From: Thermoproteota archaeon
GTDB taxonomy: Archaea; Thermoproteota; Thermoprotei; Gearchaeales; Gearchaeaceae
NCBI GenBank assembly: GCA_032249235.1
Contig: JAVVGF010000004.1
Location: forward strand, 43,525-107,524
Direction: 5' to 3'
DNA: 64,000 nt
The position numbers and the translations under genes were made by a program. Below the pieces are notes generated by a model, which was given only the letters and a program-made list of their open reading frames with translations, was not told where the DNA came from and did no database searches. This document shows positions 7,623 to 37,744 of the stretch, piece by piece (position 1 is the stretch's first letter; each line of letters begins with the position of its first letter).

Positions 7623-8918
7623 ATGGCGGAGAAAAAACCACATTTGAATTTGATAGTGGCAGGACATGTAGATCATGGAAAATCAACTACTACAGGCCAC
7701 ATACTAACTCTTTTAGGTGTAGTGGATAAAAAGAGACTTGCAGAATTAGAAGAAGAAGCGAAGAAAAGAGGAAAAGAATTCGCGAAATATGCTTGGATCT
7801 TAGATACATATAAAGAAGAAAGGGAAAGAGATATGACGATAGATCTTACTTTCTTGAAATTCGAAACCAAAAAATATTTCTTCACAATAATCGATGCTCC
7901 AGGTCATAGAGATTTCGTTAAAAACATGGTAACAGGTGCTTCGCAAGCTGATGCTGCATTATTAGTCGTTTCAGCAAAGAAGGGAGAATTTGAAGCTGGA
8001 ATAGGAGCAACAGGACAAACAAGGGAACACGCTTTCTTATTGAGGACAATGGGAGTAAATCAAATAATCGTAGCTATTAATAAAATGGACGATCCTTCAG
8101 TGAATTGGAGCAAAGAAAGATTTGAAGAAGTAAGGAAAGGCATTCTTGATCTTTTAAGACAAGTAGGTTATCCAGTTGAAAAAATTAGAGTAATTCCAAT
8201 TTCAGCATGGTATGGTGATAATTTAGTAGAAAGAAGTAGCAATACTCCATGGTATAATGGACCTACTTTGGCTGAAGCATTCGATGAATTAGTTGTTCCT
8301 CCTAGACCTGTAGATAAACCTTTAAGGATACCTGTTGAAGCTGTATATTCAATAACTGGAGTAGGAACTGTTCCTGTCGGAAAAGTAGAAACAGGCAGAC
8401 TAAGAGTAGGAGATGTTGTTGTAGTCATGCCCAGTGGTAAGAAAGGCGAAGTTAGATCTATAGAGACCCATCATACACCAATACAAGAAGCCATTCCTGG
8501 AGATAATATAGGTTTCAACGTTAAAGGTCTAGAAAAAACAGATGTAAAAAGAGGAGATGTTTTCGGCCCTGTCGATAATCCTCCTACAGTTGCTAGTGCA
8601 GTTATCGCTAGAATATTCGTAATCTATCATCCTACATCAATAGCAGTAGGCTATACTCCTGTTATGCATATTCACACAGCTACAGGGCCTGTTAAATTTG
8701 AAGAAATTCAAAAGAAATTAGATCCAAGAACAGGCTCAACTATAGAGGAGAATCCTAAGTTCATTAAACAAGGAGATGCTGCAATAGTTAAATTAAGACC
8801 AATAAAGCCTATGATAATCGAAAAATATTCAGATTTTCCAGGTCTTGGTAGATTTGCTATTAGAGATATGGGTAGGACTATTGCTGCAGGAGTTGTTCTA
8901 GACGTAATTAAAGCATAA
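7623..8918 (+). CDS. tuf: Elongation factor 1-alpha
   Basis: GHVDHGKST, DAPGHRDF, NKMD, GRFAIRDMG. Confidence 0.99.
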   Translation: MAEKKPHLNLIVAGHVDHGKSTTTGHILTLLGVVDKKRLAELEEEAKKRGKEFAKYAWILDTYKEERERDMTIDLTFLKFETKKYFFTIIDAPGHRDFVKNMVTGASQADAALLVVSAKKGEFEAGIGATGQTREHAFLLRTMGVNQIIVAINKMDDPSVNWSKERFEEVRKGILDLLRQVGYPVEKIRVIPISAWYGDNLVERSSNTPWYNGPTLAEAFDELVVPPRPVDKPLRIPVEAVYSITGVGTVPVGKVETGRLRVGDVVVVMPSGKKGEVRSIETHHTPIQEAIPGDNIGFNVKGLEKTDVKRGDVFGPVDNPPTVASAVIARIFVIYHPTSIAVGYTPVMHIHTATGPVKFEEIQKKLDPRTGSTIEENPKFIKQGDAAIVKLRPIKPMIIEKYSDFPGLGRFAIRDMGRTIAAGVVLDVIKA

Positions 8919-9226
8919 TGCCAAGAGTAGCGCGGATATATCTCTCTGCAACAAACATTAGCGATCTAGAAAGTGTCGTCAATGAAATAAAAACAATTGC
9001 TGATTCACAAAATGCAAGATTAGCAGGTCCTGTTCCATTGCCTACAAAAAGATTAAGAGTTGTAACCAGGAAAACTCCTTGCGGCGATGGAACGCATACT
9101 TTTGATAGATGGGAACTAAGAATACATAAAAGAATAATAGATGTCATTGCTTCAGAAAACGTGATGAGACAGTTAGCAAGAATAAAAGTACCACCATCCG
9201 TTAGGATTTCTATCAACATTAGATAA
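8918..9226 (+). CDS. rps10: 30S ribosomal protein S10
   Basis: GPVPLPTK, RKTPCGDG, WELRIHKR. Confidence 0.97.
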   Translation: MPRVARIYLSATNISDLESVVNEIKTIADSQNARLAGPVPLPTKRLRVVTRKTPCGDGTHTFDRWELRIHKRIIDVIASENVMRQLARIKVPPSVRISINIR

Positions 9227-9270
9227 AACTTAATTATACCTTCTTTTCTTATAGTAATTAGCCGGGAAAA

Positions 9271-9366
9271 GCCGGGATACGAAAGCCCGAAAGCCTAGCG
9301 GACAAGGCGCAGGCCTTGAGAGCCTGTGGGCGTAAGCCCGCGTGGGTTCGAATCCCACTCCCGGCG
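9271..9366 (+). tRNA. tRNA-Ser(UGA) with a 13-nt non-canonical intron (9279-9291, position 8/9)
   Basis: GCCGGGA/TCCCGGC acceptor stem; CAGGC-CTTGAGA-GCCTG anticodon arm; long variable arm; TTCGAAT T-loop. Removing 9279-9291 gives GCCGGGATAGCCTAGC, identical to the 5' ends of the two other Ser tRNAs in the window. Confidence 0.9.
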
Positions 9367-9460
9367 TTTTTAAATCTGTTTATTTTCTTTGTTTTATGAT
9401 AAAAGAATTTTTACATATGTTTTTAAACCTTGAATGAATTTTTTTATTTTTCTTTGAATT
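9367..9460 (+). terminator. Oligo-T rich tract after tRNA-Ser(UGA), probable terminator
   Basis: Several T5-T8 runs directly downstream of the tRNA. Confidence 0.45.
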
Positions 9461-9509: not shown

Positions 9510-9893
9510 ATGGGGGCTAGGGAACGATTAGAACAGATTTACTCTTTGGAACTTGGAAGACATATAATTGCAGATGTAATAGTAAGCAATAGTAGCAAAC
9601 TTAAGGATGTTGAATACTTGAGGAAAATTTTATATGAAGCAGCAGAAAAGGCTAATTTAAAAGTCATAAGCGATAATTTTACAACCTTTGAGAATACTGG
9701 AGGTATCTCACTTCTCTTATTCATAGCTGAATCACATTTATCAATACATACATGGCCTGAATATTCTTTCGCGGCTATAGACATATTTACATGCGGAAAA
9801 GATGCCAATCCTATAGCAGCTTATGAACATATTATAAAGGAACTAGGCGTTGTAAAAGCTTCAAAGAAGGAAATAAAGAGAAAATTACCCTAA
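9510..9893 (+). CDS. speH: Pyruvoyl-dependent S-adenosylmethionine decarboxylase family proenzyme (AdoMetDC or crenarchaeal ArgDC paralog)
   Basis: AESHLSIHTWPE self-cleavage motif; DIFTCG. Confidence 0.88.
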   Translation: MGARERLEQIYSLELGRHIIADVIVSNSSKLKDVEYLRKILYEAAEKANLKVISDNFTTFENTGGISLLLFIAESHLSIHTWPEYSFAAIDIFTCGKDANPIAAYEHIIKELGVVKASKKEIKRKLP

Positions 9894-26064: not shown

Positions 26065-26148
26065 CGCCGGGAGTGGGATTTGAACCCACGAGGGCAAACG
26101 CCCACAGGCTCTCCAGGCCTGCGCCTTACCTGGCTAGGCTATCCCGGC
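26065..26148 (-). tRNA. tRNA-Ser(GGA)
   Basis: Cloverleaf; CAGGC-CTGGAGA-GCCTG; long variable arm. Confidence 0.97.
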
Positions 26149-37660: not shown

Positions 37661-37744
37661 CGCCGGGAGTGGGATTTGAACCCACGAGGGCAAACGCCCA
37701 CAGGCTTAGCAAGCCTGCGCCTTACCTGGCTAGGCTATCCCGGC
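37661..37744 (-). tRNA. tRNA-Ser(GCU)
   Basis: Cloverleaf; CAGGC-TTGCTAA-GCCTG; long variable arm. Confidence 0.97.

Follow-up and report, generated by a model that had tools for sequence, protein, structure and literature searches.

A copy of the acceptor strand in the leader of an intron-containing tRNA-Ser(UGA) gene of hot-spring archaea, and its possible part in splicing

How can the precursor of a tRNA be spliced when its splicing motif is built from the same nucleotides as its acceptor stem? The question is raised by a tRNA-Ser(UGA) gene in a 64,000-nucleotide stretch of DNA (the window) from a Thermoproteota archaeon (GenBank assembly GCA_032249235.1, contig JAVVGF010000004.1, positions 43,525 to 107,524 of the forward strand). 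The sequence GCCGGGA is present twice at this gene, on the + strand: at 9261-9267, in the leader (copy 1), and at 9271-9277, where it is the true 5' strand of the acceptor stem (copy 2). The two are separated by AAA (9268-9270). A preliminary description of the window had recorded this arrangement, which is indeed in the sequence, although the full repeat is of 8 nt, AGCCGGGA at 9260-9267 and 9270-9277, with a period of 10. The whole of 9260-9279 can be written as AGCCGGGA-AA-AGCCGGGA-TA. From comparison of related loci and from folding predictions, we regard it as probable, if well short of certain, that the leader copy is a placeholder and tether, which sits on the 3' acceptor strand (9359-9365) while the real 5' strand forms the splicing motif.

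In the window the repeated sequence belongs to tRNA-Ser genes throughout. GCCGGGA is found seven times on the two strands, against a mean of 0.83 expected from dinucleotide shuffles, and seven or more matches were seen in none of 100 shuffles. Six of the seven lie in the acceptor stems of three tRNA-Ser genes, each of which contributes its 5' strand and the complement of its 3' strand; the seventh is the leader copy. The other two genes of this family, for tRNA-Ser(GGA) and tRNA-Ser(GCU) (minus-strand genes at 26065-26148 and 37661-37744), have no intron and read GCCGGGATAGCCTAGCC. Neither has an upstream copy of the acceptor strand, as had been stated in the preliminary description. In the whole genome (1.43 Mb) ARAGORN lists 45 tRNAs, among which are all 43 matches of the Rfam tRNA model. 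A second copy of the acceptor strand at most 70 nt upstream, with at most one mismatch allowed, is found in one of the 45, the tRNA-Ser(UGA), which is also the only one in which a non-canonical intron was detected.

The repeat is real DNA, since contigs from two other DNA runs span 9000-9329 without differences. The duplication also recurs in independent metagenome-assembled genomes (MAGs), in a single-cell genome and in metagenome contigs. An assembly artefact was rejected on these two grounds, the agreement of differing DNA runs and the recurrence in independent genomes.

The intron and its splicing motif

The gene reads GCCGGGA-U (9271-9278), followed by an insert of 13 nt and then by A-GCC-UAGCGG and the rest of the tRNA up to G73 (9292-9366). 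The first part is the 5' exon, tRNA G1-U8, made of copy 2 and U8; a T follows copy 2 in 12 of 12 orthologues, and the paralogues read GCCGGGATAGCC. The insert is a non-canonical intron at position 8/9 (9279-9291, + strand). The 3' exon extends from A9 to the discriminator G73 and contains the D arm, the anticodon UGA, a long variable arm, the T arm and the 3' acceptor strand TCCCGGC, the partner of both copies. Excision of the intron restores the 5' sequence of the paralogues and with it a canonical cloverleaf, one of the marks of a bulge-helix-bulge (BHB) intron; the remainder of the gene scores as a tRNA. The 8/9 placement refines that of the preliminary description and is the best one; an intron at 9/10 (9280-9292) gives the same product, 9279 and 9292 both being A.

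The exon-intron boundary has two further marks of a BHB motif in all 12 orthologues, namely, a 4-bp helix between exon and intron and two opposed 3-nt bulges, each 3' of a helix strand. In the central helix (H), tRNA C3-G6 (9273-9276) pairs with intronic CCCG (9286-9289). The 5' bulge comprises A7, U8 and the first intron base (9277-9279), and the 3' bulge comprises A, A and A9 (9290-9292). Over the 12 orthologues the bulges take the form N7, U8 and first intron base on the 5' side, and R, R and N9 on the 3' side. The inner helix (h') is the single pair C9280-G9285, which closes a GAAA loop (9280-9285). The outer helix (h) is possible only between G1C2 and G10C11 (2 bp, invariant; 3 bp in the orthologue G011). 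The pairs of H do not vary among the orthologues and speak neither for nor against covariation. Cuts after the second bulge base on both strands yield a mature sequence like that of the paralogues, and the exon junction recreates GCCGGGATAGCC. We infer this cleavage position from the account of BHB introns in the excerpted text of PMC4090602, with which the geometry of the tRNA-Ser(UGA) intron agrees. In canonical introns, according to the same excerpts, anticodon bases 34 and 35 lie within the 4-bp helix.

The splicing motif therefore takes up the whole 5' acceptor strand, G1-U8. The BHB needs G1C2, C3-G6, A7 and U8, and so it and the normal acceptor stem are mutually exclusive. The preliminary description had placed the real 5' strand in a BHB helix. 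This holds for C3-G6, which form one strand of H, but the motif engages all of G1-U8 and not a single helix strand. Because of the intron at 8/9, both ARAGORN and Rfam (41.7 bits) misplace the 5' end and start the tRNA at 9285, with a poor acceptor stem in which intron bases serve as a false acceptor strand. A split or permuted tRNA gene, or the relic of one, was considered and rejected: all parts are contiguous and in order within 9261-9366.

Another repeat overlaps the intron. CGAAAGCC is found in tandem at 9280-9287 and 9288-9295, from the 3' half of the intron into the start of the D stem, only in the lineage of the window; the closest relative (L075) reads TGAAAACCCGAAAGCC in its place, and so the tandem repeat looks like a by-product of the GAAA loop and the CCCG-AAA-GCC junction, and no feature in itself.

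Conservation and predicted folding of the leader copy

The order to which the source genome belongs is a small group of AT-rich hot-spring archaea, whose members are named in public records as Geoarchaeota, Thermoprotei or Thermoproteota MAGs. The 12 distinct orthologues come from 11 genomes of this order and from the metagenome locus L075, and cover two families and five genera. The double copy is present at this gene in 11 of the 12 genomes of the order, and the twelfth genome is 67% complete. Loci were also retrieved with a pattern that required the end of the intron and the tRNA body but not the copy. All 12 loci found in this way (six from a species-genome collection and six from metagenomes) do carry the copy; most of them duplicate known loci, L075 being new. 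Three loci of family f2 were likewise found without the copy as a criterion. The preliminary description had suggested looking for leader and intron together in related genomes. The two occur together in 12 of 12 distinct orthologues, and under retrieval independent of the copy none of the 12 has the intron alone.

The leader copy is conserved in a surrounding that is not. Copy 1 is invariant at six of its seven positions, while the 22 nt upstream of it have no invariant column (0 of 22) and a mean pairwise identity of 0.41. The spacer between the copies is of 3-8 nt in the relatives and differs in sequence, its last base being A in 11 of 12 (G in G011). The intron ranges from 12 to 24 nt and its loop has diverged. 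The one variable position of copy 1 follows the acceptor stem: nine loci have A at position 7 together with A-U as the acceptor pair 7:66, and the remaining three have G together with G-C. Within the intron, the closing pair of h' is present in 12 of 12 loci as four Watson-Crick types (A-U in five, U-A in three, G-C in three and C-G in one), and h' is a 7-bp helix in G011. The pair that closes the GAAA tetraloop is C-G in the window but U-A in L075, a compensatory change between the two closest relatives. MAFFT alignments misplace copy 1, the spacers being of unequal length, and the pairs were counted instead by script on segments defined by a regular expression. The expression requires GCCGGG[AG] for both copies; the independent evidence for the copy is the retrieval of loci described above.

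The intron and the copy have not been seen together outside this order. By eye, no copy is visible in the 86-91 upstream bases of seven intron-less tRNA-Ser(UGA) genes that belong to other families of the class. Of 401 genomes sampled from the phylum, five have the full pattern, and each of these is a member of this order. A looser double-copy pattern, applied to the whole class, gives many matches in GC-rich genomes, where reversed-pattern controls match too. Of the double-copy loci from that scan, 19 were inspected (some 35 further matches were not), and none of the 19 is a tRNA gene of this design, a T-loop match being nowhere combined with the 3' acceptor strand that the design requires. 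One locus of another family (L020, in G033, at about 1450-1540) has a class II tRNA with the acceptor sequence GCGGGGG, an insert in the D-arm or position-26 region, and a partial repeat, CGGGG, directly before the 5' end. Its anticodon loop CTTAAGA gives the anticodon UAA, and the tRNA is probably tRNA-Leu.

Precursors of 11 orthologues, starting one base before copy 1, were folded with a nearest-neighbour model. In the unconstrained minimum free energy (MFE) fold at 37 C, copy 1 is on the 3' acceptor strand with seven of seven pairs in 10 orthologues and five of seven in one, and helix H has all four pairs in 11 of 11. The sequence from the window alone gives the same fold (z = -3.37). When copy 1 plus H is forced, the energy differs from that with copy 2 forced into the acceptor stem by -5.6 to -12.9 kcal/mol at 37 C and by -1.5 to -7.2 kcal/mol at 75 C. 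Deletion of the copy in silico returns copy 2 to the acceptor stem, with no H, in seven of 11 cases at 37 C and in 10 of 11 at 75 C. With the cloverleaf arms of the window's tRNA held fixed, formation of the BHB only costs 12.5 kcal/mol relative to the cloverleaf, and a gain of 6.5 kcal/mol over the cloverleaf results when copy 1 occupies the 3' strand. The preliminary description had favoured a structure in which the copy pairs with TCCCGGC and the real strand is in the BHB, with later removal of the copy by RNase P. Comparison and folding both support that proposal, and its structure is the MFE fold of all 11 orthologues (including the one with five of seven pairs to the 3' strand).

The leader copy as a proposed placeholder, and the alternatives

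For a role in the precursor, copy 1 would have to be in the transcript. The preliminary description had noted a TATA-like element at 9230-9238; it is present as CTTAATTATA at 9229-9238 (+ strand), resembles a B recognition element (BRE) with TATA box, is preceded by an A-rich stretch, and belongs to a block that is kept in genus-level orthologues. The distance from the end of the block to copy 1 is 22 nt in the window and, by eye, 22-23 nt in the eight orthologues with a clear block, whatever the length of the spacer, while the distance to copy 2 varies with the spacer. In four of the 12 loci, all very AT-rich (G004, G007, G008 and G005), these distances are ambiguous. Upstream of the 44 other tRNA genes of the genome, words that fit YTTWAWWH form a cluster between -38 and -29 relative to G1. 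The word of tRNA-Ser(UGA) starts at -32 when counted from copy 1, inside the cluster, and at -42 when counted from copy 2, outside it. This word histogram replaced an expectation-maximisation motif search of the same 44 upstream regions, which returned an A-rich word at scattered positions and was discarded. Given the position of the TATA-like element and the usual archaeal spacing between TATA box and start, transcription is predicted to start at about 9259-9261, which would make copy 1 the very 5' end of the primary transcript. A start near 9260, with the copy transcribed, had been proposed before; the position agrees with ours, and it has the standing of a prediction in both cases.

The tRNA may also be carried on read-through RNA from the gene for ribosomal protein S10 (rps10, 8918-9226, + strand), whose stop codon is 2 nt before the TATA-like block. 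This gene is the second of a tuf-rps10 pair directly upstream; tuf, for elongation factor 1-alpha, is at 7623-8918 on the same strand, and both names are our assumption from the translated open reading frames (ORFs). One contig from a metatranscriptome library extends from upstream of 9000, takes in rps10 and copy 1, and has its end at 9270, while the DNA contigs reach 9329. Copy 1 is thus represented in an RNA library, by this one contig of one study. The end at 9270 is one base before G1 of copy 2 and fits a cut by RNase P at 9270/9271 on read-through RNA, as a weak hint at most. The RNA cover consists of contigs of one run, shows no splice junction and leaves out 9273-9314, so that it is uninformative on splicing or the start site.

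The genome has the genes for the processing steps that the proposal calls for. Its archaeal RNase P RNA reaches 135.7 bits (gathering score, 84); the leader to be removed by that enzyme would end just before G1 of the 7-bp acceptor stem. Removal of the leader by EndA for want of RNase P was rejected on account of this RNA. Two EndA paralogues (187 and 178 aa, with PF01974 matches at G000:C2:141127-141366 and C5:39544-39798) and an RtcB gene are also present. Judged by gene content, the two paralogues conform to the pattern of alpha2-beta2 enzymes, which cut relaxed motifs according to the excerpts of PMC4033280. Cleavage of the tRNA-Ser(UGA) precursor would then be by EndA and its ligation by RtcB.

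The placeholder role would work as follows. The acceptor stem and the BHB would compete for G1-A7, and the 7-bp acceptor stem would normally win. By occupying the 3' acceptor strand, copy 1 would leave the real 5' strand free for the BHB. The same 7-bp helix of copy 1 would keep the 8-nt 5' exon on the body of the tRNA during cutting by EndA and ligation by RtcB, and would in this sense be a tether. Loss of the intron would remove the CCCG partner of the real strand, which could then displace copy 1 with the aid of native tertiary folding. A cut by RNase P at 9270/9271, before G1, would remove the copy and make the exchange irreversible. We give about even chances to the stronger form of the proposal, namely, that the decoy is a required part of the splicing substrate and that the precursor passes through three states: decoy on the 3' strand together with the BHB, the cut and ligated RNA, and the exchange fixed by RNase P. 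Exchange of strands after splicing appears feasible, and the folding model does not predict that it is spontaneous and complete. The spliced conformers are nearly equal in energy, and the final exchange would therefore need tertiary folding or kinetic trapping by RNase P.

Several results weigh against these proposals. In the folding, the RNA with the copy deleted keeps H in the MFE fold of four of 11 orthologues at 37 C, and the advantage of copy 1 for the window's own sequence is merely -1.5 kcal/mol at 75 C. The energy model omits tertiary contacts, which favour the native cloverleaf. After splicing in silico the copy-1 conformer is equal or slightly favoured, by 0.3-4.5 kcal/mol at 37 C and by -0.1 to 2.3 kcal/mol at 75 C. 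RNase P could, moreover, cut 5' of copy 1 as well. On the evolutionary side, the intron and the copy appear confined to a single clade, and amount to one origin and not to 12 independent cases. With an acceptor stem that is nearly invariant, the pairing of copy 1 with the 3' strand draws its covariation from one position; that covariation is a single evolutionary event, and it is common to copy 2. The outer helix h, finally, is just 2 bp long and invariant.

The rival that survives best would have the copy play no part in splicing: it would be a neutral scar of the insertion of the intron, left by target duplication or slippage, or an initially transcribed or promoter-proximal element. Tandem duplication is a plausible mutational origin of the repeat, the single origin of intron and copy in one clade suits a scar, and the position at the predicted start site suits a promoter element. 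We nevertheless find this account unlikely. Seven bases have been kept over two families next to 22 nt without an invariant column, and the adjoining spacer changes. A scar would not track the change of A7 to G7 in the acceptor, and a promoter element has no need to equal the acceptor strand.

Quite improbable, in our view, is a second tiny intron at 7/8 (9268-9277, or an equivalent 10-nt frame), in which case copy 1 would be the mature acceptor strand. The preliminary description had raised this and rated it the weaker of its two ideas, and it is disfavoured here too. A 4-bp helix is possible between the CCGG of copy 1 (9262-9265) and that of copy 2 (9272-9275), with a possible 3-nt bulge after each strand, and the promoter spacing suits copy 1 as the 5' end. 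The mature tRNA would be identical, so sequence alone cannot decide. However, such an intron would have no outer helix, and 3 nt only would remain inside. It would be of 10 nt in six of the 12 loci, against the range of 11-129 nt quoted for archaeal tRNA introns in the excerpts of PMC4090602. At 37 C the hairpin is less favourable, by about 14 kcal/mol, than pairing of copy 1 with the acceptor strand, and both it and the main BHB would require copy 2. Furthermore, G1 and position 7 of copy 2 would be free of constraint, contrary to the invariance of G1 and the covariation of position 7 with N66. The end of the RNA contig at 9270, and not at 9260, is a weak point in the same direction. Least credible of all is that copy 1 is an alternative 5' splice donor. 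The intron would then be longer, beginning two bases after copy 1 and ending at 9291, and the second base after copy 1 would become position 8 of the tRNA. Copy 1 does have the same CGGG and could form the same 4-bp helix with CCCG and the same 3' bulge, and U8, nearly universal in tRNA, would be retained in four of the 12 loci (L075, L006, L002 and L003; spacers TAA and TTA). In the other eight, however, position 8 would be A or C, whereas all 12 have U directly after copy 2, and a pseudoknot would result if copy 2 held the acceptor stem.

Flanking features, known systems and significance

Directly after the tRNA, at 9367-9371 (+ strand), is TTTTT, an oligo-T tract that we take to be the likely archaeal terminator; CCA is not encoded. 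Further downstream, an ORF of 127 aa (9510-9893) contains ...AESHLSIHTWPE..., presumably the self-cleavage region of a pyruvoyl S-adenosylmethionine decarboxylase of the SpeH type. Among the other tRNA genes of the genome, ARAGORN labels two intron-containing ones outside the window as Ser(gga) and Ser(tga) (G000:C1:130874-130958 and G000:C5:9502-9602). Their acceptor stems, GCTCCGG and GCAGGGG, differ from that of the Ser family, and the labels are probably mis-typed through the placement of the introns. Phe-GAA, Leu-UAG and Arg-CCG are missing from the ARAGORN list.

As an intron it is an unremarkable addition to the non-canonical ones known from archaea; the leader copy is what sets this gene apart. 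Such introns, with strict or relaxed BHB motifs, are described in the excerpted texts of PMC4090602, PMC4033280 and PMC3218864. Like those of Thermoproteales and other Crenarchaeota with an alpha2-beta2 EndA, the present ones are short (12-24 nt), lie outside 37/38 and have a 3-4-3 BHB, probably with short flanking helices; the host likewise encodes two EndA paralogues together with RtcB and RNase P. Unlike them, the BHB here consumes the entire 5' strand of the acceptor, and a copy of that strand is conserved in the leader. Introns at 3/4, which use acceptor nucleotides, are mentioned in the excerpts of PMC4090602. A full-text literature search, whose scope did not extend to the primary intron surveys, returned no description of a leader copy of the acceptor strand, and an earlier mention is possible.

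A parallel in function is offered by the split tRNA genes of Nanoarchaeum equitans and Caldivirga. There, according to the excerpts of PMC4090602 and PMC4033280, complementarity of leader and trailer joins the halves for EndA. In the split genes, and by our proposal in tRNA-Ser(UGA), a transcribed extra sequence outside the mature tRNA pairs, holds the exons and allows the BHB to form. In tRNA-Ser(UGA), however, the gene is contiguous and would be spliced in cis, the extra sequence copies a strand of the tRNA and would pair with the tRNA's own 3' end, the copy lies outside the BHB, and its removal would be by RNase P and not by EndA.

Two further comparisons are with systems of alternative pairing. 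In attenuators and in the expression platforms of riboswitches, mutually exclusive helices share one strand, and the choice of partner sets a downstream event. The 3' acceptor strand would likewise have two alternative partners, but there is no input from a ligand or ribosome; the switch would be driven by removal of the intron and fixed by RNase P. Pre-tRNAs of bacteria and eukaryotes can have leader bases paired with the 3' acceptor region, or leader paired with trailer, and this modulates RNase P. Unlike the leader copy, such pairing is usually partial, involves no conserved exact copy of 7 nt and has no link to an intron.

On the current view, a self-contained BHB is what marks an archaeal tRNA intron for recognition, and leaders have no part in splicing in cis. 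Here a conflict between the motif and the acceptor stem has seemingly been solved by a conserved spare strand in the leader. If this is true, even a site whose recognition motif has to come from the acceptor stem can hold an intron, with an exon of 8 nt tethered at high temperature, and the persistence of the intron at position 8/9 would be explained. It would be a simple and testable case of programmed RNA refolding that couples splicing to processing by RNase P. It would also supply a rule for annotating such genes, whose 5' end is misplaced by ARAGORN and Rfam and whose intron is missed by automatic annotation, and a conceptual link from contiguous intron-containing genes to split tRNAs, in both of which extra pairing would hold the exons. 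Were the principle general, it would predict which sites in tRNA genes are open to invasion by archaeal introns and which are not, and also that structural information for splicing can reside in leaders.

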